Assembly (NCBI GenBank): GCA_964645755.1
Contig: CAZYBT010000008.1
Span: 1-51,501 of the forward strand
Source: an uncultured Rhizobium sp.
GTDB taxonomy: Bacteria; Bacteroidota; Bacteroidia; NS11-12g; UBA955
Direction of reading: 5' to 3'
DNA length: 51,501 nucleotides
The notes below the pieces were generated by a model, which was not told where the DNA came from, made no database searches, and saw only the letters and a program-made list of their open reading frames with translations. Made by a program: the position numbers and the translations under genes. Positions within the stretch are counted from its first letter, which is position 1. Each line of letters begins with the position of its first letter. Of the stretch, positions 7,556-51,501 are shown in pieces.

Positions 7556-8278
7556 ATGAGCAATTTCGTAATACACAATGCAGAAACCCGTGGGCACGCC
7601 AATCACGGTTGGTTAAATAGCTATCATACTTTTAGTTTTGCCAGTTATTACAATCCAGAACGCATCCATTTTGGTGCACTCAGGGTGTTAAACGACGATA
7701 CGGTTGCTGCAGGTATGGGGTTCGGCAAACATCCTCACGATAATATGGAGATTATTTCAATTCCGTTGGAAGGAGATTTGCAGCACCAAGACAGCATGGG
7801 AAACACAGCTATCATTAAAAATGGCGACATCCAAGTGATGAGCGCCGGAACTGGTATCCAACATAGCGAATTCAATGCAAGCCAAACCAATTTGGTCAAG
7901 TTTTTACAAATTTGGGTCTTCCCGAAAAACAGAAACGTAACCCCTCGTTACGACCAAATGACGCTAGATAAAAAAGATCGACACAATAAATTACAACAAA
8001 TCCTCTCTCCCAACCCAGACGATGCCGGAGTTTGGATACATCAAGATGCTTGGTTTCATTTGGGTAAATTTGATCAAGATTTTCAAACGGACTACCTGAT
8101 TAAAAAACCTGGAAATGGTCTGTATGCGTTTGTTTTAAAAGGAAGTTTTTCTATTGATGGAAAAACACTTAACACCCGAGACGGAATGGGAATCTGGGAT
8201 ATATCTCAGGTTACAATAAAATCAGATTCAGAGGCATCAGAAATTCTACTAATGGAAGTTCCAATGCAACTCAATTAA
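7556..8278 (+). CDS. Pirin family protein (YhhW/quercetinase-like, short form)
   Basis: 240 aa. Cupin metal motif GFGKHPHDNMEIISIPLEGDLQHQDSMGN and MSAGTGIQHSEFN. Confidence 0.85.
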   Translation: MSNFVIHNAETRGHANHGWLNSYHTFSFASYYNPERIHFGALRVLNDDTVAAGMGFGKHPHDNMEIISIPLEGDLQHQDSMGNTAIIKNGDIQVMSAGTGIQHSEFNASQTNLVKFLQIWVFPKNRNVTPRYDQMTLDKKDRHNKLQQILSPNPDDAGVWIHQDAWFHLGKFDQDFQTDYLIKKPGNGLYAFVLKGSFSIDGKTLNTRDGMGIWDISQVTIKSDSEASEILLMEVPMQLN

Positions 8279-8280
8279 AA

Positions 8281-8589
8281 TCAAGGATTTTCAGAGAGCG
8301 TGTCTAAATATCCTAAGCTACCACCTTCCAACCATTTTACATTTTTACCAATTTCTTGTAAGTAGGCTTGGGCTCTTCGAGCTCTGCCTCCTCCTCTACC
8401 GCATGTGGTTACAATCAACATTGCTTCAGGAATTTCAGACAATCTTTTTTCTAAATCGTCTACAGGTATGTTCAAGGCATTTGGAATATGTCCTTCCGAA
8501 TATTCATTCGGTTTTCTTACATCCAAAACCATAACATTGTTTATAGCTTGAATTTCTTTCAATTCATTGATTGTTATTTTATTTTCCAT
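8281..8589 (-). CDS. Rhodanese-like domain protein
   Basis: 102 aa. LDVRKPNEYSEGHIPNALNIP and active-site loop TTCGRGGGRARRA. Overlaps the upstream MFS gene by 11 nt, so likely the same operon. Confidence 0.8.
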   Translation of the reverse strand: MENKITINELKEIQAINNVMVLDVRKPNEYSEGHIPNALNIPVDDLEKRLSEIPEAMLIVTTCGRGGGRARRAQAYLQEIGKNVKWLEGGSLGYLDTLSENP

Positions 8590-9838
8590 CTTCTTTAAAT
8601 CTCGTTTGAATCACAAATGCCGACAGCAAAGTTATTGCAGCAATAGCATAAATTGACGCGGCAACTCCAAATTTATCGGCAATTAAACCTGTAATCACGG
8701 CACCAATTGCATATCCTAAATCTCTCCAAAATCGAAAAACGCCCAAAGAATTGGCCCTATCGGCTGGATGGGTATATTGAGCGATTGTAGCCAAAAATGT
8801 AGGGTAAACCAGGGCTGTACCAATTCCTAACAGTGCACTTAAAACCACCCACACGATATAAATCGGATTTAACGACATACAAAACAGCGTTAAACCTTGT
8901 AAAAACATCCCCCAAAATAACAGTAACTTTTTGGAATATAAATCGGCCAATTTTCCTGTAATGAGTTGGCCTATACCCCAAAACGCCGGATAAACTGCTG
9001 CAATGATGCCAATTTCTTTAATTTGAAATCCCTGATTTGCCAATACCACAGGTAAAAGTCCCCACACCATACCATCGTTCAAATTATTGACCAACCCGGC
9101 TTGAGAAACAGATCCTAAAATTGGATGCTTCCAAGAAGTGTGGTAAAATACATTCTTAAGTCGAGGAATCATCGATTTTTCGGACTCTTTCTGACTGTGT
9201 AAGGTGGTGTCCTTTACAAATAAAATAGTGGTTAAAAGTCCAACAATTGACAAAGCAATACCGATATAAAAAGGGTAAGGTCTAACCCCATAACGTTGTG
9301 CAATGAATGCCGTAAGCATGGCAACAAAAGCCACTGACAAATAACCAGCAAACTCATTCAAGCCCATTGCAAATCCCCGTTGTTTCTCGCCTACCAGATC
9401 AATTTTCATGACCACCGTGCTTGACCAAGCAAGTCCTTGGTGGATTCCAAGAAGCACATTGGTAAACACAACCCATGTCCAAGAAGTTGCATGAATCATT
9501 AAAAATGGAATTGGCAGGGCCAATATCCATCCCAAAATAAGCACATTTTTTCGACCAATTTTTCCGGCAAGTTTTCCAGAAAAATAGTTCGATACAGCTT
9601 TGGCGACACCAAAAACGGTAATAAAGGATAAAATTGCAGCATTTGCCTGAATATGAAATACATCTGAAGCAAAAAGTGGCATGATGCTGCGCTCCATTCC
9701 CACCATTCCACCAACAAAAGCATTCACAAGAACAAGTAGCATGAATTGGGGTAAATTTTCCTTTAGGCCGAGTTTAATCTGATTTTCTTGCATGGACAAA
9801 TCAATTCCACACAAAGTTCCCACTACGCTCTGGCGCAT
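8579..9838 (-). CDS. MFS transporter
   Basis: 419 aa and hydrophobic throughout (~12 TM). MFS loop 2-3 signature SGKLAGKIGRKNV. Confidence 0.8.
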   Translation of the reverse strand: MRQSVVGTLCGIDLSMQENQIKLGLKENLPQFMLLVLVNAFVGGMVGMERSIMPLFASDVFHIQANAAILSFITVFGVAKAVSNYFSGKLAGKIGRKNVLILGWILALPIPFLMIHATSWTWVVFTNVLLGIHQGLAWSSTVVMKIDLVGEKQRGFAMGLNEFAGYLSVAFVAMLTAFIAQRYGVRPYPFYIGIALSIVGLLTTILFVKDTTLHSQKESEKSMIPRLKNVFYHTSWKHPILGSVSQAGLVNNLNDGMVWGLLPVVLANQGFQIKEIGIIAAVYPAFWGIGQLITGKLADLYSKKLLLFWGMFLQGLTLFCMSLNPIYIVWVVLSALLGIGTALVYPTFLATIAQYTHPADRANSLGVFRFWRDLGYAIGAVITGLIADKFGVAASIYAIAAITLLSAFVIQTRFKEDGK

Positions 9839-9864: not shown

Positions 9865-10452
9865 TTACTTCTTAGCCCGAATTCTGCTCAAACTCACCTG
9901 TGTAATTCCCAAATAAGATGCGATGTATTTCAGTGGAATTCTCTGAATTGCTTGAGGTTGCTCTAACAACAGCTGCCCATAGCGTTCATCGGCAGTTAAA
10001 AACTGCAAGCTCTCTAAACGATTAATCTGCTGGATATATGCATGCTCTATGAATTTATAAAACACCTTCTCTATATCAGGAAATGTTGCAAAAAGTGCAA
10101 ATAATTTTGGGGTATTGATTTGAAATAACTGAGAATCTTCAATGGCCTCAATGCCTTTGCTCGATGGTTTCATGGTTATCAAACTTTCACCCCTTGCCAC
10201 AAATGAGTTTTCAAACTCAAAGCTCTCTGTTATATCTCGGCCATCCTTGAAATAGAAAATCCTCAAACATCCTGAATCAATAAAATATAAATTCTTACAC
10301 GATTGACCAATATCTTGTACCAATTCACCTTTTTTAAAAGAAACCCTTTGGGTAATTTCTAAAATTGCATCAGTTGAATCATCTTTGAGCGCATATAAAT
10401 GCTTCAATGCCGTAACCAAAGGCTGATATTCAAATTGACTCAACATATTCAT
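9865..10452 (-). CDS. Crp/Fnr family transcriptional regulator (cNMP-binding domain + C-terminal HTH)
   Basis: ORF track 9865..10602. I prefer ATG 10452 (MNMLSQFEY...) because the longer form overlaps the divergent CLC gene. cNMP-binding beta-barrel: GELVQDIGQSCKNLYFIDSGCLRIFYF. HTH: IASYLGITQVSLSRIRAK. Confidence 0.75.
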   Translation of the reverse strand: MNMLSQFEYQPLVTALKHLYALKDDSTDAILEITQRVSFKKGELVQDIGQSCKNLYFIDSGCLRIFYFKDGRDITESFEFENSFVARGESLITMKPSSKGIEAIEDSQLFQINTPKLFALFATFPDIEKVFYKFIEHAYIQQINRLESLQFLTADERYGQLLLEQPQAIQRIPLKYIASYLGITQVSLSRIRAKK

Positions 10453-10485
10453 GTTCCTTGAAACACGAATATAAGTCGAAAGTCG

Positions 10486-10493
10486 TAGATTTG
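10486..10493 (+). promoter_or_regulatory. Candidate -7 box (TAGATTTG) for the CLC gene
   Basis: TAnnTTTG match ending 8 nt before ATG 10502. This implies a very short leader. Confidence 0.35.
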
Positions 10494-10501
10494 TTGAAGG
10501 A

Positions 10502-11734
10502 ATGCTTAAGAACCTCGCACTTTGGAGTCTCGTATGTATCGCAATTGGCATACTTTCAGGAAGTTCGTCTGCAATTTTTCTTCTGTGTTTAGACTGGGTC
10601 ACACAGGTTCGCGAATCGCATAAGTGGTTGATTTACTTATTACCTATCGGTGGTTTAATGATTGGATTGGCTTACAGCAAATCTCCTGAGGCATCAAAAA
10701 AGGGGAACAATGCCATCATTACAGAATACCAACAATTCAATACCTTACTGCCATTCATTACGGCGCCATTGGTATTTTTGGCCACGATTCTCACCCACTT
10801 ATTGGGAGGATCGGCTGGTAGAGAAGGCACCGCGGTACAAATGTCGGCGGCCATTGCAGATCAATTCTCTAGGTTTCAATTCTCAAGGTTTGCAAACAGA
10901 AAATTGCTCATCAAATTAGGTGTGGCAGGAGGATTTGCGGGTGTTTTTGGAACCCCGTTTGCGGGTGCGGTATTTGCTATTGAACTTTTATTTAAAGACA
11001 AATTTCACTGGAAATTCATCCTTCCAACCGCATTGACTGCGTGGATTGCCCACCTTTCTTGTATCACCTTTTTTCCGGTACATCACACAGAATATCATAT
11101 TTTTTCAACGCCCCCAATATCCCTCATTAATTTACTTAAAATCTTCATTGCAAGTATTTTATTTGGATTAACTGCCCGTTTATTTGTGATTTCTGCAAAT
11201 CTTTTTTCGAAAATCGGTTCTTCTATTACAAAAACAGCATGGTTAAAGCCCGTAATTGCTGGAATTTTACTGATTTTCATTTACTCGATTTTCAATTGCG
11301 AGCCATTTTATGGATTGGGAATAAAAGGCATTGAAGATTCCTTTTTTAGAATTTCGAGGGACAGTGACTTTTTGGTAAAATTGTTGTTGACCACTTTTAC
11401 CTTGTCGTTTGGATTCAAAGGAGGCGAAGTGACCCCTTTATTTTTCATCGGTGCCACTTTGGGAAGTGCGTTATCGGGATACTTAGGATTACCCACAGAT
11501 TTAATGGCGGGAATGGGATTATTGGCGGTGTTTGCATCTGCTACTCACTCTCCTGTTGCAAGTTCTATCATGGGAATAGAGCTTTTTGGAATCGAATATT
11601 TTGGTTATTTTATTTTCGTTTCAATTATTGCCAACTTCTTTTCTGGAAAAGAAGGAATTTACAGTGAACAGAAAAGCTTCATGAAACAGTTAAAATTAGA
11701 AAATTTGGCTTTTTGGGGGACGTTGACCAAGTAA
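10502..11734 (+). CDS. CLC family channel/antiporter, probably fluoride-subclass (CLC-F type F-/H+ antiporter)
   Basis: 410 aa polytopic membrane protein. Motifs KGNNAII, GGSAGREGTAVQ and GFKGGEVTPLFFIGATLG stand in place of canonical GSGIP, G(K/R)EGP and GxFxP. As I recall, Asn plus Thr at these positions typify the fluoride-specific CLC clade. Confidence 0.6.
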   Translation: MLKNLALWSLVCIAIGILSGSSSAIFLLCLDWVTQVRESHKWLIYLLPIGGLMIGLAYSKSPEASKKGNNAIITEYQQFNTLLPFITAPLVFLATILTHLLGGSAGREGTAVQMSAAIADQFSRFQFSRFANRKLLIKLGVAGGFAGVFGTPFAGAVFAIELLFKDKFHWKFILPTALTAWIAHLSCITFFPVHHTEYHIFSTPPISLINLLKIFIASILFGLTARLFVISANLFSKIGSSITKTAWLKPVIAGILLIFIYSIFNCEPFYGLGIKGIEDSFFRISRDSDFLVKLLLTTFTLSFGFKGGEVTPLFFIGATLGSALSGYLGLPTDLMAGMGLLAVFASATHSPVASSIMGIELFGIEYFGYFIFVSIIANFFSGKEGIYSEQKSFMKQLKLENLAFWGTLTK

Positions 11735-44783: not shown

Positions 44784-44846
44784 CATTGTACCAACTCCAA
44801 AAAAACATCGAGTACTATACCCTCACAAAACAATTTTAAGGAATTG
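44784..44846 (+). repeat. 63-bp direct repeat, copy A (left flank of the antitoxin/partner cassette)
   Basis: cattgtaccaactccaaaaaaacatcgagtactataccctcacaaaacaattttaaggaattg. Identical to 46024-46086 except for one position (44839 a versus 46079 g). Confidence 0.95.
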
Positions 44847-44898: not shown

Positions 44899-45354
44899 TT
44901 ACTTACTTAATATTTGTAATTGCTTTCGATATTTCCATTTTACAGATTTAGAATTTTGAAAGCACGTAATTAATTCATTAAAAATTTCGAGTTTCATTTT
45001 GCCCCAAATTTCGAAATCACTGCCTTCATTAGGATAAATTTCATTCATCATGTCTACAGAATAATCATCTATTTGATGACCGTATAGATGTGTTTTAAAA
45101 TCAAATTTTTTACCACATTCTGTTACCATTTCATTTTCGGAAATTACAAAACAGTTCAAATTAATATCAGGAATATCAATGCATCCAATTTTAGTTAAAC
45201 TATCTTGGGGTATTGTATCTTTTCGGGTTGGCAAGGAAGCCAAAATAGTTTTGTTATCTGATAGATTTAATACAAGAAAATATTTCGGTTTAGCAGTATT
45301 CCCATTTTTGAAATAAAATGGATCAAAACGGATTATGTTCCTGATATCCAACAT
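44899..45354 (-). CDS. Unrecognised 151-aa protein; candidate toxin partner of the Panacea-type antitoxin
   Basis: Starts 2 nt after the stop of the upstream antitoxin-like gene. The N-terminal RFDPFYF..KPKYFLVLN...ASLPTRKD pattern is faintly reminiscent of the MazF/PemK barrel (DFDP...RPAVVLS...VPCTT). That resemblance is by eye only. Confidence 0.45.
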   Translation of the reverse strand: MLDIRNIIRFDPFYFKNGNTAKPKYFLVLNLSDNKTILASLPTRKDTIPQDSLTKIGCIDIPDINLNCFVISENEMVTECGKKFDFKTHLYGHQIDDYSVDMMNEIYPNEGSDFEIWGKMKLEIFNELITCFQNSKSVKWKYRKQLQILSK

Positions 45355-45356
45355 AA

Positions 45357-45932
45357 TCAGTGAGATTCAATGTAATCAGAATAAATTTTTAATTTTCGTT
45401 CATCATGGGCAATAATCATACTCATATCTATCAGATATTCAGTATTGTTGATCGATTCATTTTCCAACAATTCCAAAACAGAATTTTCTTTGGCAGTATT
45501 GAACCATGGAGAATTTACACGATGAGTGTATCCAACCAATTCTTTTGCAGTTCTATTGCCATACTTCTCCACAACATAGTCCATTAACTCAATTTCGTTT
45601 TCGGAAAATTCATCTTCACAAAAAGTTATCTTAGAGACAATATAACTTTCTTTTTTATCTGAATCAACTGAAATAAATTTATCCAACAATGTAATCTCTG
45701 AAGATAATTCAACAAACAATTCCTCAGAAACTGGACCAAATTTCCAAACTTTATACTTTAAATTCAACAATGGAATACCACTTTTTTTGATAGATATCTC
45801 ATCCAAAATGTAAAGTAACTTTAATAATTTGGTTTTTGAAAGATATTCAATCTTCTCAGCCAAGTAAACAATAGTATAACCAATTTTCTCAATTTGGTCA
45901 TGATTATATTTTACATACGGTACTGAGCTCAT
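45357..45932 (-). CDS. Panacea (DUF4065/SocA-like) domain antitoxin candidate
   Basis: 191 aa. SKTKLLKLLYILDEISIKKSGIPLLNLKYKVWKFGPVSEELF matches the DUF4065 core pattern (KLqKLLYyad......G.pl....f.AW.yGPV....y). Confidence 0.65.
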   Translation of the reverse strand: MSSVPYVKYNHDQIEKIGYTIVYLAEKIEYLSKTKLLKLLYILDEISIKKSGIPLLNLKYKVWKFGPVSEELFVELSSEITLLDKFISVDSDKKESYIVSKITFCEDEFSENEIELMDYVVEKYGNRTAKELVGYTHRVNSPWFNTAKENSVLELLENESINNTEYLIDMSMIIAHDERKLKIYSDYIESH

Positions 45933-46023: not shown

Positions 46024-46086
46024 CATTGTACCAACTCCAAAAAAACATCGAGTACTATACCCTCACAAAACAATTTTAGGGAATTG
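46024..46086 (+). repeat. 63-bp direct repeat, copy B (right flank of the cassette)
   Basis: 62/63 identical to 44784-44846. The two copies are 1240 bp apart, start to start. Confidence 0.95.
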
Positions 46087-46284: not shown

Positions 46285-46353
46285 ACTTTACATATTTTAA
46301 GCGTTTCACTTTACATATTTTAAGCGTTTCACTTTACATATTTTAAGCGTTTT
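46285..46353. repeat. Three tandem copies of a 23-bp unit (ACTTTACATATTTTAAGCGTTTC)
   Basis: Copies at 46285-46307, 46308-46330 and 46331-46353 (the last base of copy 3 is T, not C). Copy 3 runs directly into the left terminal inverted repeat of the IS3-family element. Confidence 0.9.
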
Positions 46354-46414
46354 ATAATACTCCCCAGTTGTTGGACCAAAGTTTAGTATTGCTAAGTTAA
46401 TATTTAAAATTGAA

Positions 46415-47281
46415 TTAAGCAGCATTTTTGTTTAAAGATTTATGATAAGCGTCATTTGGTTTCATTCCAATACTTTGATGTTTTTTCTGATGATAATACT
46501 CGATATAGGTCTGAACTCCTTCAAATAGTTCAAGACCTGTATCGCAAGGGTTCAGATAAATATGGTTGTATTTGATGGTTTTCCAGAACCTTTCAATCCA
46601 AATATTATCTGTGGCTCTGCCTTTTCCATCCATCGATATTTTGAATTCTTGACCTTCCAAATAGTTCGTCCAAGTAGGACTGGTGTACTGTGATCCTTGG
46701 TCTGAATTGATGATTTCAGGAACACCATGTTTTGCAATTGCATTTTCCAATACATCCATACACCATTGCTTGCTCATCGAGTTACTGATGCCCCAGCCCA
46801 TGATTTTTCTGCTGTAAACATCAATGATGGCGGTCATGTACATAAATCCTTTAGACATGGGGATGTATGTGATATCGGTGCACCACACTTGGTTGGCTCG
46901 CTCAATTTTTAAGCCACGCAACAAATAGGGTTTGATGTATGCTTTGAGAGCACCTTTAGTAAGATTTTTTCTTCGATATATAGTTTCATGCCCCATCAGT
47001 TTAAACATCCGTCTAATACGCTTGGGACCTACTGGGTAACCATGTTCTTGAAGCCATTCATCCATTGATAAAACGCCCTATGTTGGATGAGATGTAAGAT
47101 GTTGATCCATCAGAGACATCATCTTGAGATTCTCAGGTTTTTCAGGAATAGGCGCATAGTAAAGTGAACTAGGAGGAACACATAACAATTCACATTGTCG
47201 GCGCAATGAAATGGCACTTCGCTTTAATTTTATGGCTTCCATTCGTTCTCGGGTATCCCCAATTTCTTGGCACTTTTTTTT
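46415..47281 (-). pseudogene. IS3-family transposase OrfB (DDE/rve integrase core), interrupted by an in-frame amber codon
   Basis: The -1 frame from UUA-AAA-AAA-A reads KKKCQEIGDTRERMEAIKLKRSAISLRRQCELLCVPPSSLYYAP...MDQHLTSHPT-TAG-GVLSMDEWLQEHGYPVGPKRIRRMFKLMG. The TAG is at 47080..47078, where relatives normally have HP.YG. The downstream 216-aa ORF carries DDE residues (WCTDITYI, INSDQGSQY, IERFWKTIK). Confidence 0.75.
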
Positions 47282-47547
47282 AAAAAGTCTAGCTCCACTT
47301 TGAGCTTGCCAATTTGGGCATAAAGCTTCTCTACTGGCACCTCTGGCTCACTGTTTTCAGTTTCCTTTACGTTGGAAAAAGCAGCAGCCATGTTGGTTAT
47401 TAACTCTGATTTCCATTTAGAAATTGTTACGGCGTTAACCTCGAATTTTTGTGACAACTGTGCTAATGTTAGTTGTTCTTTCGCCGCCTCATGGGCAACT
47501 TTTGCCTTGAATTCAGGTGTGAATTTGCGTCGGGTTTGTTTGGTCAT
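47230..47547 (-). CDS. IS3-family transposase OrfA (HTH)
   Basis: 105 aa. RRKFTPEFKAKVAHEAAKEQLTLAQLSQKFEVNAVTISKWK, a leucine-zipper-like tail, and an A8 slippery run (47274-47281) near the 3' end. Confidence 0.85.
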   Translation of the reverse strand: MTKQTRRKFTPEFKAKVAHEAAKEQLTLAQLSQKFEVNAVTISKWKSELITNMAAAFSNVKETENSEPEVPVEKLYAQIGKLKVELDFLKKSAKKLGIPENEWKP

Positions 47548-47618
47548 ATTGTTTAGTCAAATTAAGTGTTTTTTTAACTAAACTTCTGGTCCAATTTTTA
47601 GGGAGTATTATAATACAT

Positions 47619-48110
47619 TCACACCTCACATTTACCCACCCCATTTCCCAAAAACTCATATACCTTCATGATTTGGGGCTTTACAACGTCATAAATGTAG
47701 TACATGCATGAATTGAACTCAAACCTTTTGTTGTTAATCTCAATAAAATAGCCAGTATCTGTAAAAGAAATTGGCAAATGCCGATTGAACATAACATGAT
47801 TTCCTAAACTGCCATAAATGCCATAAAAATGGATGTGATTTTCAAGTTGAGGCACATTTTTGTTCATCGCAATGTAGTGATAGTAAGTGGTGTCGGTGTG
47901 TTTGTTGAATAATTCTACAAATTCAAAAAACAAGTCTTCATCGTGTTCATTTATATCAGTGTAGTATTGAACAAGTTCATCATTTTCAATAACATAGCAA
48001 TATACTTTTCCTTGGGCGCCCATGGCACCCAATTCCCCGTATTCGGCATACACGATTTTTTCTAAGGGAAGATTTTCCAGCAACTCTCGGGTGATTGGTT
48101 TCTTTTTCAT
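47619..48110 (-). CDS. Hypothetical 163-aa protein (second gene of the orphan two-gene operon)
   Basis: Uninterrupted ORF. Starts 7 nt after the stop of the 409-aa gene. Its stop codon (47621..47619) lies 1-5 nt from the IS3 right end. No family recognised. Confidence 0.5.
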   Translation of the reverse strand: MKKKPITRELLENLPLEKIVYAEYGELGAMGAQGKVYCYVIENDELVQYYTDINEHDEDLFFEFVELFNKHTDTTYYHYIAMNKNVPQLENHIHFYGIYGSLGNHVMFNRHLPISFTDTGYFIEINNKRFEFNSCMYYIYDVVKPQIMKVYEFLGNGVGKCEV

Positions 48111-48116
48111 CTGATT

Positions 48117-49346
48117 TTAAATCAATCCTTTCAGCATTTCTGCATTTTTCTTTACTTTGGCAATGTGCAACCAAGTTTTTGCCAAATCTTCGTGCCAATA
48201 TTTCTTCATTAATTTTGCCTTCGCAGCATCTGTTAATCGCGATTCAGCGATAGCCCAAAGCATGTATTTAGCTTTCACCAAATCAATGTTTGATTCTAGT
48301 AATTTTCGTGCGGCTTCAAAGTCTGGGAAAAACACACGACCCACTTTTTCTGTTTTTATTGGAACAGGATATAATCGACGCGAATGCGGTAAAAAGCAGT
48401 AATTCAAATGAAAACCGCAGAAATCCGACTTTTGTTGATTCCCATACTTTTCCGAAAAACTCCTGCATCTTTTCAAAGAATATTCCTCCTCCTCTTCCTC
48501 TGGACTCATTTTCCGGTAACCGCGATTTTTAAGAATTCCATCCTTAGAATATTCAAAATATGGAACCTTATTGAAATCATCTAATAAATCTGTCTGATCA
48601 TCAGACTCCCAAATACTATCCAATAATTTTTGCTGATTATAGGCATCAATAATATTGTCGATATGCGCTTGATCCATCATATTCAAACGGTCGCAGTCCA
48701 TCAAAATTTGCTCATTTGTCAATTCAAAATCTTGATTCCAATCTATCAAATGGGCGGTGTAACGGGCTCTTTGTGCCGTAACGAAATCCAATTGAGCGTG
48801 TTGTTCAACCCATTTCGCAATATTTTCATGAGGGACAGTTGTCGTTTCAACAAGTGGTCGAACGTATTCATTTTCTATAGCTTGCGCCAACACCCAATCC
48901 CACTGTTCATGATCTAATTTAACTTTGGTTAGAAAATTAACATAAAACCAGTACACACCTTTGCTATTCTTTTCATTTACAACAAGATGCACCTGATCCG
49001 TGGTAATCCGTTGAAATATTTGAAAAATCCCATTTTTCACTGCTTGTGAAGGCTTAGCCTTTAATTCAGTTTCGAAAATTCTACTAAACCGAAAATTCGG
49101 GACATTGTCAATTATACAATTGATGGTAATCTTGAGCATTCCATGTCTATCGATTCTTTTAGGAACATCAAAGCAGTCCAAATTCAATTGAATCAAATCG
49201 AGCATTACCCTTTCGTTGTATTGATAATCAAGGAGATCATCTCTATACGAATAGTAATCCTTCAGCGTTTTAATCCTAAATTTCGGCACGGGCCTAGCCA
49301 TCTTTAAATATTCTTTCCGAAAGGTTTTTTGCAACAAGGGATCCAT
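48117..49346 (-). CDS. Hypothetical 409-aa protein (first gene of the orphan two-gene operon)
   Basis: Long uninterrupted ORF in AT-rich DNA. Cytoplasmic-looking, with an acidic run (PEEEEEEY). No catalytic motif recognised by eye. Confidence 0.55.
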   Translation of the reverse strand: MDPLLQKTFRKEYLKMARPVPKFRIKTLKDYYSYRDDLLDYQYNERVMLDLIQLNLDCFDVPKRIDRHGMLKITINCIIDNVPNFRFSRIFETELKAKPSQAVKNGIFQIFQRITTDQVHLVVNEKNSKGVYWFYVNFLTKVKLDHEQWDWVLAQAIENEYVRPLVETTTVPHENIAKWVEQHAQLDFVTAQRARYTAHLIDWNQDFELTNEQILMDCDRLNMMDQAHIDNIIDAYNQQKLLDSIWESDDQTDLLDDFNKVPYFEYSKDGILKNRGYRKMSPEEEEEEYSLKRCRSFSEKYGNQQKSDFCGFHLNYCFLPHSRRLYPVPIKTEKVGRVFFPDFEAARKLLESNIDLVKAKYMLWAIAESRLTDAAKAKLMKKYWHEDLAKTWLHIAKVKKNAEMLKGLI

Positions 49347-49475: not shown

Positions 49476-49976
49476 ATGATTCACTTTACGCTTAAAGAAA
49501 CCCCGGTTTTATTGGGAATTGTTGATACATTTGAATGTCCTTATTGTTTGAAAATTTCTGATTGGAATTTATTGAGGATTGATAGACACATTAATATCTT
49601 TTTTATTCCTGTAATACCTTTAATAATGGCTCCGTATAGACTGAAATGCGCACATTGTAATTATGAGTTAATTATTCGGAAAGATGAAATTAAAAATTAC
49701 ATAGCAAAATTAAAAATTAAAGAATTATTTACATGTGGTAAAATCGATGAATATGAGAGAAAATCTAGAATTAGTGAAATTGATTTTTTAATAGAAAAAG
49801 TAAAACAACAAAGAAAAAACGTTGCAATTTCAGAAAGCGATAAATGGACCGAATTAACCAGAAACAAAACAGATGAAGAATTGCTCAAAATTTATTTCAA
49901 TCAACGCTTTCAATATAATGCATCCATGATCATTGCCATTAAAGCCGAAATTGATAGAAGACGATTATTAAATTGA
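49476..49976 (+). CDS. Zinc-ribbon domain protein with a central hydrophobic segment
   Basis: 166 aa. CPYC...(INIFFIPVIPLIMAP)...CAHC, a split four-Cys ribbon around one hydrophobic stretch, followed by a helical tail. Divergent from the 409-aa gene. Confidence 0.5.
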   Translation: MIHFTLKETPVLLGIVDTFECPYCLKISDWNLLRIDRHINIFFIPVIPLIMAPYRLKCAHCNYELIIRKDEIKNYIAKLKIKELFTCGKIDEYERKSRISEIDFLIEKVKQQRKNVAISESDKWTELTRNKTDEELLKIYFNQRFQYNASMIIAIKAEIDRRRLLN

Positions 49977-49981
49977 AGGTT

Positions 49982-50560
49982 TCATTTTGCCAATCCCTCC
50001 CCCCTAACCTCAATAAACGCACCTAAAATGTTGGTACTTGGATTCCATTCGTCTTGCCAGTTTTCGTTTTCGAAAATGGGATTGGTGGTTTCGTTGTCGT
50101 CGAGGCCGTCCATGTTGTAGATGAGAGAACGGATGAGACGTTGACCTGCAATGGCAATGGTGTCGGTGGGTTGTTTGGGGGTCCAACATACCACGTCTAA
50201 GGCCCTCTTGCTTGTGCCGTTGGCCCATGCGTCGAGTTTTACGGCGGCTGTCATGACGTAATATCCCTCAAAACGCGTGTCGATGTAAATCTTCACTTCA
50301 CCGCCGATGTCGGGCATCCCCATCATTAAAAATGGATGATAAAAACTCGCCCACAACTTCGGAGGCGTGGTTCCCATAAATAACCGGTCAAAGTTTAAAT
50401 AGGCCGATGAAATGTGATAAACGGGTGCTCCCTGGATGATCCTGCAAACTTTATTTTCTTCTTGTTCGGTTTCCGCTGGCGCGTTTCCAATGACAATCAT
50501 TTTTCCTTGGATGGTTTGACGAAGCGCCAAATAATTCATTGCTGTTGCTCTGTTGTCCAT
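49982..50560 (-). CDS. Hypothetical 192-aa protein in a G+C-richer block, divergent from the WYL regulator
   Basis: ORF 49982..50596, which starts at TTG. I prefer ATG 50560 (MDNRATAMNY...). No family recognised. Its composition differs markedly from the neighbouring genes. Confidence 0.5.
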   Translation of the reverse strand: MDNRATAMNYLALRQTIQGKMIVIGNAPAETEQEENKVCRIIQGAPVYHISSAYLNFDRLFMGTTPPKLWASFYHPFLMMGMPDIGGEVKIYIDTRFEGYYVMTAAVKLDAWANGTSKRALDVVCWTPKQPTDTIAIAGQRLIRSLIYNMDGLDDNETTNPIFENENWQDEWNPSTNILGAFIEVRGEGLAK

Positions 50561-50622
50561 AGTTTTACTGTTTTTGTTGATGCAAAATTCAGTCAATGTC
50601 CATCAAAGAAATAATGCACAAA

Positions 50623-50648
50623 TGCAATAAAATATTGCACTATATTTG
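50623..50648 (+). promoter_or_regulatory. Palindrome TGCAATA-aaa-TATTGCA immediately upstream of a -7 box (TATATTTG) for the WYL-regulator gene; candidate operator/promoter
   Basis: Repeat arms at 50623-50629 and 50633-50639. The -7 box at 50641-50648 ends 4 nt before ATG 50653, implying a leaderless or near-leaderless transcript. Confidence 0.4.
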
Positions 50649-50652
50649 TGAT

Positions 50653-51501
50653 ATGCACTTATCGAGGATTGAGCGACTTCAGTTTATTCAAAATTTGCTT
50701 AGGGAGGGACAGCAACCCACCTTCGAGGAGTTGAAAACGGTGATTTCCGAAAAATTGTCCCCCATAAAAACAAGAATGCTGAGGGAAGATTTGCACTTTC
50801 TTCGCACGGAAGGACTTAATAACAATCGATTGTCAATCAAATTAATAGAAGGGAAATACACCCTTCAAAACGACAATGAATTTAGTATTCACAGTTTGAA
50901 AGACAACGAACGAGGCACCCTTCCCCTATTATTTTCAATTCTCCAACCTTATGAGCAGTTTCCGGCGGTAAGTGCCCTGCTGAACAACCTGATTCAAGTG
51001 CACAAACTCAACGAAGCCGAAATAAAACAACTCAGTTGGGGCATTGGAAATAATGCACAAAAATTGAAACCCATGCAAATTCAACGCATTGTTGATATTT
51101 TGGGATGCATTCACAAGCAAGTGGCCATCGAATTTAACTACTACAAAGTCACCCAAGGTGCTGTAGAACATAGCGATGAGGACATCGTTTACAGGAGGGT
51201 TTATCCATTTCAAGTTCGCACTTTTGACGACCGTTATTATTTGGTGGGGATACAAGTTGGTCGCGAAATCAAGGCTGAAAACATTCAACATTTTCCGATT
51301 GACCGCATCCACCGCAGGGTTGACATTGCCCTCGACGAAAGCACGGAAGAACCCATTCACTTCGACTGGTTGAAATTCCTTCAAAAAACGGACTTCACCA
51401 ACCATTACAAACATTGCATTGGTATGTATCGCGAATTTGGCAAGGCGGTAAAACCCATCATTGTATACCGTTGGTTCACCGGCTGGGCCGCCAGCCAGGT
51501 T
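50653..51501 (+). CDS. HTH + WYL domain transcriptional regulator (partial; continues beyond the window end)
   Basis: Not in the ORF track because there is no stop in the window. My translation from ATG 50653 is open for 283 codons: MHLSRIERLQFIQNLLREGQQPTFEELKTVISEKL (winged-HTH-like) ... VYRRVYPFQVRTFDDRYYLVGIQVGREIKAENIQHFPIDRI (WYL-domain signature). The 159-aa minus-strand ORF 50935..51414 is antisense to it. Confidence 0.75.
   Translation, partial: MHLSRIERLQFIQNLLREGQQPTFEELKTVISEKLSPIKTRMLREDLHFLRTEGLNNNRLSIKLIEGKYTLQNDNEFSIHSLKDNERGTLPLLFSILQPYEQFPAVSALLNNLIQVHKLNEAEIKQLSWGIGNNAQKLKPMQIQRIVDILGCIHKQVAIEFNYYKVTQGAVEHSDEDIVYRRVYPFQVRTFDDRYYLVGIQVGREIKAENIQHFPIDRIHRRVDIALDESTEEPIHFDWLKFLQKTDFTNHYKHCIGMYREFGKAVKPIIVYRWFTGWAASQV

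Follow-up and report, generated by a model that had tools for sequence, protein, structure and literature searches.

A WYL-domain regulator and a divergent 192-aa protein as an apparently mobile two-gene cassette with a candidate defence role in uncultured Bacteroidota

The stretch of DNA analysed in this work, hereafter the window, comprises 51,501 nucleotides from an uncultured bacterium that was deposited as Rhizobium sp. and is placed by GTDB in the Bacteroidota (GenBank assembly GCA_964645755.1, contig CAZYBT010000008.1, positions 1 to 51,501). Its last 1520 bp, positions 49982-51501, hold a gene for a 192-aa protein, which we named cargo A, and on the opposite strand a gene for a WYL-domain regulator (WYL) that is cut by the end of the window. 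Judged by comparison with related loci, this block is a real, horizontally mobile two-gene cassette, in which the WYL regulator and cargo A share a control region that is inherited with the pair. Its genomic context, together with analogy to known systems, makes the cassette a candidate defence module, with cargo A as a probable effector induced by stress or phage.

Results and discussion

Distribution and mobility of the cassette

About 25 loci encoding a close relative of cargo A (at least 39% identity) were collected from GTDB genomes, JGI metagenomes and Logan/ENA contigs. All of them belong to uncultured Bacteroidota, among them Flavobacteriales and Crocinitomicaceae, and lakes and ponds are the source of most. 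The sequencing runs in which the window sequence was found come from freshwater metagenomes; no GTDB genome gave an exact match to the end of the window. In the window and in the loci L001, L014 and L016, which form one lineage with it, WYL and cargo A are immediate neighbours in divergent orientation, and the same arrangement is found in L002, L004, L005, L007, L011, L012, L019, L020, L021, L022, L026 and L043. An earlier reading of the window, made from its letters without database searches (the sequence-only reading), had raised the co-occurrence of the two genes in other genomes. Indeed, the pair was recovered in nearly every locus with enough flanking sequence, even where identity falls to 39% in cargo A and 48-50% in WYL.

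Pairwise DNA homology between the loci extends from the stop codon of WYL to the stop codon of cargo A. The match of L016 to the window (97.8% identity) is confined to 49996-51501, and the genes to either side differ. On the cargo side, L014 retains synteny with the window over 3.9 kb (92%). The pair of L022 is isolated, its neighbours being an outer-membrane-like gene and one for an MFS transporter. The WYL gene is absent from L008, where cargo A is frameshifted. Recombination between the two genes of the cassette is visible as well: between L002 and L005 the synonymous divergence (dS) is 0.61 for cargo A and 0.17 for WYL, and the comparison of L004 with L006 gives the reverse pattern.

The block also differs from the rest of the window in composition. 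Its G+C content is 0.438, as against a mean of 0.363 (sd 0.024) for all other windows of 1520 bp (z=3.1); none of these equals it, the highest value among them being 0.415. Taken separately, the 192-aa gene has a G+C content of 0.473 (z=3.2), which is unmatched by any other window of the same size. The G+C content at third codon positions (GC3) is 0.539 in the 192-aa gene and 0.495 in the WYL gene, versus 0.348±0.047 in the other 43 open reading frames (ORFs), and since it is raised in both genes the shift is a nucleotide signature rather than an amino-acid effect. The cumulative G+C curve has its minimum, the change point, at 49988; the stop codon of cargo A (49982-49984) is 4 nt away. The sequence-only reading had placed an abrupt change of composition near 49980, on hand counts of 32 G+C out of 60 at 50101-50160 and 13 out of 60 at 49701-49760. 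These counts proved exact on recount, and the change was upheld both by the windowed G+C values, among which none reaches that of the block, and by codon position. The same reading had regarded the block as a separately acquired module, a view that agrees with the G+C and GC3 anomaly, with the end of inter-locus homology at the two stop codons and with the unrelated flanks. Across the loci, the WYL and cargo A pair was richer in G+C than its own flanks in 10 of 12.

Next to the change point lies a gene for a Zn_ribbon_15-like protein of 166 aa (49476-49976) with an extremely low G+C content (0.275; GC3 0.22). It runs on the strand opposite to cargo A, and its end and the stop codon of that gene are 5 nt apart. 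A relic of this junction, with the 3' part of each gene, was observed in L015 at 10069-10609.

The control region

The divergent intergenic region (50561-50652, 92 bp) was aligned across loci and is their most conserved non-coding sequence, being kept also where the cargo differs. It contains both putative promoters and an operator-like block. The -7 promoter element of Bacteroidetes has the consensus TAnnTTTG. The box TATATTTG (50641-50648, plus strand), 4 nt upstream of the WYL ATG, matches it perfectly and the box GAATTTTG (50583-50590, minus strand), 22 nt upstream of the cargo A ATG, resembles it, so we take the two to be the putative promoters of WYL and of cargo A, respectively. The cargo box is kept as GAATTTTG, GAAATTTG or TAGTTTTG in all loci, including L031 and L032, where it precedes a different gene (cargo B, see below). 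A scan for sigma-70 promoters was set aside because Bacteroidota use different promoter elements.

The operator-like block (50615-50639) consists of three TGCA-centred half-sites and includes the perfect palindrome TGCAAT-N5-ATTGCA at 50623-50639, which adjoins the WYL -7 box. One copy of this pattern is present in the 51.5-kb window, where 0.6 would be expected by chance, so a single match is unremarkable in itself; its distribution among the loci tells more. Each WYL locus has a single copy, which invariably precedes WYL; the loci with inserted genes have two copies (L003, L006=L025, L015 and L044). The more distant WYL proteins (48-50% identity; L020, L022 and L031) are accompanied by a variant, ATGCAC-N2-GTGCAT, at the same place, and thus the regulator and its site co-vary.

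The WYL-domain regulator

The WYL gene begins at ATG 50653 on the plus strand and reaches the end of the window at 51501 with 283 of its 327 codons. As full-length homologues have 327 aa, the remaining 44 codons would lie beyond 51501. An in-frame ATG at 50614, which would give a 340-aa version, was rejected as the start, given that the conserved -7 box and the operator would then fall inside the extension; ATG 50653 is favoured because TATATTTG lies 4 nt upstream of it.

The sequence-only reading had described a regulator with helix-turn-helix (HTH) and WYL domains on the strand opposite to the 192-aa gene, still open at 51501. The strand, the open end and the WYL domain of this description stand, with a gap of 92 bp measured from ATG 50653 and with the motifs that it quoted in place, and the profile searches agree with the WYL assignment. 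The window protein passes the threshold of Pfam WYL (PF13280) narrowly, with 23.1 bits versus a cut-off of 21.8 over residues 149-221, and 8/8 WYL homologues match the same family (best E-value 2.3e-7). Moreover, PADLOC WYL profiles, including PDLC01652, match at 4e-11 to 7e-14 and span residues 5-239 and 145-323 of a full-length homologue. There was no Pfam match to an HTH or WCX domain, and the length and layout fit a winged HTH (wHTH)-WYL-WCX protein. Some members carry the JGI annotation of 'YafY' regulator. No relative of the regulator was found in GenBank phages or PLSDB plasmids.

Proteins of the wHTH-WYL-WCX type such as CapW and BrxR are repressors of defence operons that occupy palindromes in the promoters and leave them once single-stranded DNA (ssDNA) is bound (PMC11662680, PMC9122601, PMC9122588, PMC9122589). 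The WYL domain of this repressor group has a conserved RWHVR motif and Arg/Ser ligand contacts (PMC11662680). CapW and BrxR are the closest known kind to the window regulator, which is of similar size (327 aa), has an N-terminal DNA-binding-like region and a palindrome in its own promoter, resides in defence islands beside varied systems and is portable with interchangeable cargo. It differs in facing one small divergent gene of unassigned family instead of a multi-gene defence operon, in having no significant sequence match to solved chains, and in reading, by eye, RYYLV for RWHVR and His for Arg. With these differences in sequence, we would not file it as a member of the CapW/BrxR group.

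Cargo A

The gene for cargo A (49982-50560, minus strand; stop codon 49982-49984, ATG 50558-50560) encodes a soluble, mildly acidic protein of 192 aa with a pI of 4.95. The ORF list gave a product of 204 aa from a TTG at 50596; in the alignment every homologue supports the 192-aa form, with its start at the ATG at 50560. The dN/dS values between homologues, 0.15-0.26, identify it as a real coding gene, and those of WYL are 0.04-0.06 at similar dS. Both genes are under purifying selection, cargo A evolving 3-5 times faster than the regulator.

The sequence-only reading recognised no family for this protein, and neither did we: profile searches with the protein gave zero matches in Pfam, NCBIfam, PADLOC and PHROG, none of the family members matched Pfam (0/51), and searches of PDB sequences with two cargo A profiles returned only noise and no relative. 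The protein is rare, with 14 clusters in an index of 5.8 billion proteins and 75 representatives in a library of 1.84 billion, and no relatives were found in IMG/VR viral contigs, GenBank phages or PLSDB plasmids.

An AlphaFold2 model built from an alignment of 51 sequences (pLDDT 93, pTM 0.89) predicts an N-terminal helix (residues 2-17), a beta-hairpin (40-49), a four-stranded antiparallel meander (68-128) and a long helix (135-150), followed by two short helices at the C-terminus; a first model from 15 close sequences (pLDDT 65) and its Foldseek result were discarded. Foldseek found nothing at E<=0.001 for the pLDDT-93 model in PDB or BFVD. The hot-dog, SecB, ART and SUKH folds were considered and rejected, the best TM-score being about 0.2 (hot-dog/SecB-like; PDB, BFVD). 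The residues conserved throughout the family are mainly Gly, Pro and hydrophobic ones, and the conserved polar positions, Q15, Y48, D110 and T127, fit no recognised catalytic motif. As there is neither a catalytic signature nor a detected fold relative, we expect cargo A to have a binding function rather than an enzymatic one.

The association with WYL is restricted to the clade with at least 39% identity, because a WYL HMM found no copy near the distant, acidic subfamily of cargo A relatives. The neighbourhoods of the acidic subfamily are varied. Among the distant relatives, one overlaps the stop codon of a type I hsdR gene and directly follows it (L010, 4128-4658), and another sits before a Macro-domain gene (L009, 1658-2416). 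Two distant members, P0062 and P0066, show a tandem duplication (387 aa) and a fusion to a Cys-rich, zinc-ribbon-like tail (330 aa), respectively.

Other cargo under the same control region

Cargo B is a coiled-coil family of 283-315 aa, found in L032 (2975-3871), L031 (4090-4941) and L017 (1607-2554). Cargo B (283-298 aa) faces a divergent WYL gene of the same lineage, with the same operator and boxes, in L032 and L031, and in L017 the operator precedes an operon of cargo B followed by cargo A, with no WYL gene adjacent. No relationship between the cargo A family and cargo B was detected by hhalign. The three members of cargo B that were scanned (L032, L031 and L017) had no Pfam or PADLOC match, and cargo C and other partner proteins had no match in PADLOC.

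Insertions of further genes between WYL and cargo A have occurred repeatedly, and in each case a copy of the operator is found on either side of the insert. The insert is a 517-aa Fic gene in L003 (276-1829) and a 493-aa Fic gene in L015 (4299-5780), the latter being present also in a 17-kb JGI contig and accompanied by a duplication of 40 bp; the two Fic proteins have only 32% identity, in the Fic core. In L044 it is an XRE-HipA pair (8157-9808), found also in L006, and the duplication includes the first 22 codons of WYL. These arrangements suggest that the regulator and the operator form a portable switch, and since the same regulator and operator would also drive cargo B, Fic and HipBA, the cassette looks like a regulated platform for potentially harmful effectors. 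In addition, a metallophosphoesterase gene (PF00149) follows cargo A on the same strand in L011 (1636-2415), L012, L019 and L026, a clade with about 50% identity to the window cargo A, and its product is a possible enzymatic partner of cargo A.

The gene order in the 5.5-kb L006 (=L025), namely XRE, cargo A, AbiEi, WYL and HipA, is a circular permutation of that in the 55-kb L044, and may be an assembly mis-join via the duplicated operator copies. A family of 371-372 aa is encoded near WYL genes of the same lineage in L028 (3029-4147) and L031 (2221-3336), and also in L027 (2636-3880); two members were scanned (L028 and L031), with no match. The palindrome is absent from L028, where about 850 bp of tandem-like, G+C-rich short repeats separate this gene from WYL.

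Genomic neighbourhood

The sequence-only reading noted that WYL regulators typically stand at the head of defence operons, and sought the effector in the divergent 192-aa gene, in genes past 51501, or in both. The present WYL gene does not head an operon, given that the genes downstream of it vary by locus and are often convergent. Of the two places for the effector, the 192-aa gene stood, this being the only conserved partner, and the genes past 51501 were not supported, as these are variable among relatives. L014 and L016 are 99.6% identical through 334 bp past the WYL stop codon, which is all that L014 holds there, and in L016 the gene after WYL is convergent and encodes a 288-aa PD-(D/E)XK_4 protein. 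From these two loci, a convergent PD-(D/E)XK gene is predicted to follow WYL past 51501 too. Elsewhere WYL is followed by a convergent McrBC system (L002 and L015), by GmrSD in a JGI contig, or, in two contigs, by a co-directional MazG-like gene and an SLFN-type helicase/S24 gene. Because the downstream neighbours differ in this way, WYL heads no conserved operon, and cargo A is its conserved partner and presumed regulated target.

Judged by a listing of its neighbours, the cassette is a resident of defence islands and recurs in independent loci. L002 has McrBC, MmeI and KilA-N; one contig has a MwoI-type restriction-modification (R-M) system, the MazG-like gene and the SLFN helicase; McrBC and PD-(D/E)XK are found in L015 and L016, respectively, and GmrSD and Fic in the 17-kb JGI contig. 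L043 combines an integrase and an excisionase with SNF2, DUF1156 and DUF499-HEPN, and L044 carries AbiE, HipBA, a UvrD-PD-(D/E)XK helicase-nuclease and Cas9. The flanks also include a DISARM-like set. In the window, the chromosomal context of TonB receptors and DUF2147 is left from about 44.9 kb on, where a low-G+C Panacea/SocA antitoxin pair, an IS3 element and three unknown genes are found; this region is a defence and mobile island.

Proposed function and alternatives

We give a probability of about 0.5 to the reading, drawn from genomic context and by analogy, that this is a mobile, WYL-gated two-gene cassette whose cargo A would be the output induced by stress or phage and would limit phages or mobile elements. 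A dimer of WYL would bind the palindrome beside its own -7 box, and this would both autoregulate WYL and gate the cargo promoter. A nucleic-acid-derived signal, or another signal of stress or infection, would act at the WYL domain and switch the cargo on, by analogy either through derepression, as with CapW/BrxR, or through activation, as with DriD/PafBC. Cargo A, as the output, would bind a host or phage target and not act as an enzyme, and in this manner would limit the propagation of phages or mobile elements.

Several observations weigh against such a role. The predicted start site of the cargo is about 50 bp downstream of the operator centre, and such a position would fit a DriD/PafBC-like activator and a CapW/BrxR-like repressor alike. 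A profile of eight WYL homologues found no CapW, BrxR, DriD or PafBC chain in PDB at E<=1. Compared by eye with the published description, the RWHVR motif of CapW/BrxR reads RYYLV (DRYYLVG), with only the first Arg kept, and the ligand-contact Arg of R-x-F appears as the His of HFPIDRI; with these residues replaced, the ligand may not be ssDNA. Regarding cargo A, no system model of PADLOC-DB 2.0 matched it, it has no recognisable catalytic or toxin motif, and no RNA-seq run with its gene was found. It is intact in L017 without an adjacent WYL gene, thus it is not obligatorily lethal when unpaired. Furthermore, the distant relatives (25-30% identity, the acidic subfamily) are unlinked to WYL, and many of them are in ordinary neighbourhoods.

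A more specific form of the proposal is unlikely in our estimation: cargo A would be the non-enzymatic effector, with a new fold, of an undescribed WYL-gated anti-phage system, and the operator-bearing divergent promoter of the cassette would be an 'effector-capture platform' that takes in genes (two unrelated Fic genes, HipBA and cargo B) with a duplicated operator.

The alternative that survives best, to which we give the same low credence, is a damage or stress unit. WYL would be an ssDNA-sensing activator similar to DriD or PafBC, and cargo A would act on host physiology, for example as a brake on division or replication like DidA, from which the cell or the mobile island would profit. An operator about 50 bp from the cargo promoter that overlaps the WYL promoter is the classical layout of an autorepressed activator, no -33 element is seen by eye at the usual spacing, WYL is devoid of the RWHVR motif of the repressor group, and cargo A is small and soluble, with no recognisable catalytic motif. 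The resemblance to DriD-DidA and PafBC includes a WYL regulator with a small effector gene and an operator position compatible with activation. However, those are chromosomal core regulators with regulons, whereas here the regulator and a single target travel in a mobile cassette, which is accessory, rare and located in defence islands rather than in core DNA-repair neighbourhoods; the fast evolution of cargo A relative to the regulator also argues against this alternative.

It is improbable that cargo A is instead a co-sensor or anti-repressor, with the pair controlling neighbouring or distant defence genes in trans. The joint inheritance of both proteins down to 39% and 50% identity, the lack of enzyme-like conservation in cargo A and the almost constant presence of defence systems as neighbours would be in keeping with such a partnership. 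However, the palindrome is confined to the space between the two genes and does not precede the neighbouring systems, the neighbours change from locus to locus, and WYL is also found with cargo B and without cargo A.

There is a still smaller chance that the cassette is an addiction module stabilising the island, in which a toxic cargo A is held in check by WYL, either transcriptionally or by binding. In favour of this are the frameshift of cargo A in L008, which has no WYL, and the repeated use of the control region by genes for real toxins (Fic, HipA). The cassette also resembles AbiE, HipBA and Fic/Doc-type pairs in being a small, mobile two-gene unit of the same islands whose control region hosts real Fic and HipBA. 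It differs from these and from type II toxin-antitoxin (TA) modules in that its genes are divergent and not co-transcribed, and no known toxin fold or motif and no PADLOC model was found for the cargo; the intact cargo A of L017, with no WYL gene adjacent, likewise does not fit a type II TA module.

Least probable of all is an anti-restriction role, with cargo A as an acidic DNA mimic or inhibitor switched on through an ssDNA-sensing WYL upon arrival of the element in a new cell. Most of the family is acidic, with net charges of -17 to -23 in some distant members, one distant member directly follows hsdR and one cassette lies beside an integrase and an excisionase. However, the net charge of the window cargo A is only about -6, neither a Pfam match nor a relative in viral contigs, phages or plasmids was found that would point to an ArdA/Ocr-like protein, and the cassette adjoins the restriction systems of its own host.

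The gating of toxic immune systems by WYL regulators is known, and a WYL-gated cassette of the kind proposed would be its smallest self-contained form, made of a regulator, an operator and one protein. It is mobile among uncultured freshwater Bacteroidota, a phylum with poorly explored defence systems. If cargo A is indeed an effector, it would add a new fold and family to the proteins of phage defence or stress control, and the insertion of Fic and HipBA between operator copies would show how defence islands bring dangerous genes under a safety switch that is already in place. If it is not, the cassette still offers a testable triplet of regulator, operator and target, and a divergent WYL lineage without the canonical ssDNA-contact motif.

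Other features of the window

To the left of the cassette, a 63-nt direct repeat with 98% identity between its copies (44784-44846 and 46024-46086) brackets a module with a G+C content of 0.28-0.29, which contains a Panacea/SocA-domain antitoxin gene (45357-45932) and a gene for an unknown protein of 151 aa (44899-45354). This low-G+C module has the appearance of a TA-like cassette that was inserted separately and whose ends are duplicated. It is followed by an IS3-family element (46349-47616) with terminal inverted repeats of 30 nt (46349-46378 and 47587-47616), whose HTH_Tnp_1 and rve ORFs are split as for a programmed frameshift, and three tandem repeats of 23 nt (46285-46353) abut its left end. 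Between the IS3 element and the Zn_ribbon_15-like gene there are two co-directional genes, for proteins of 163 aa (47619-48110) and 409 aa (48117-49346), with no match in Pfam, NCBIfam, PADLOC or PHROG; they are conserved beside the cassette in L014 only, with 77-86% amino acid identity.

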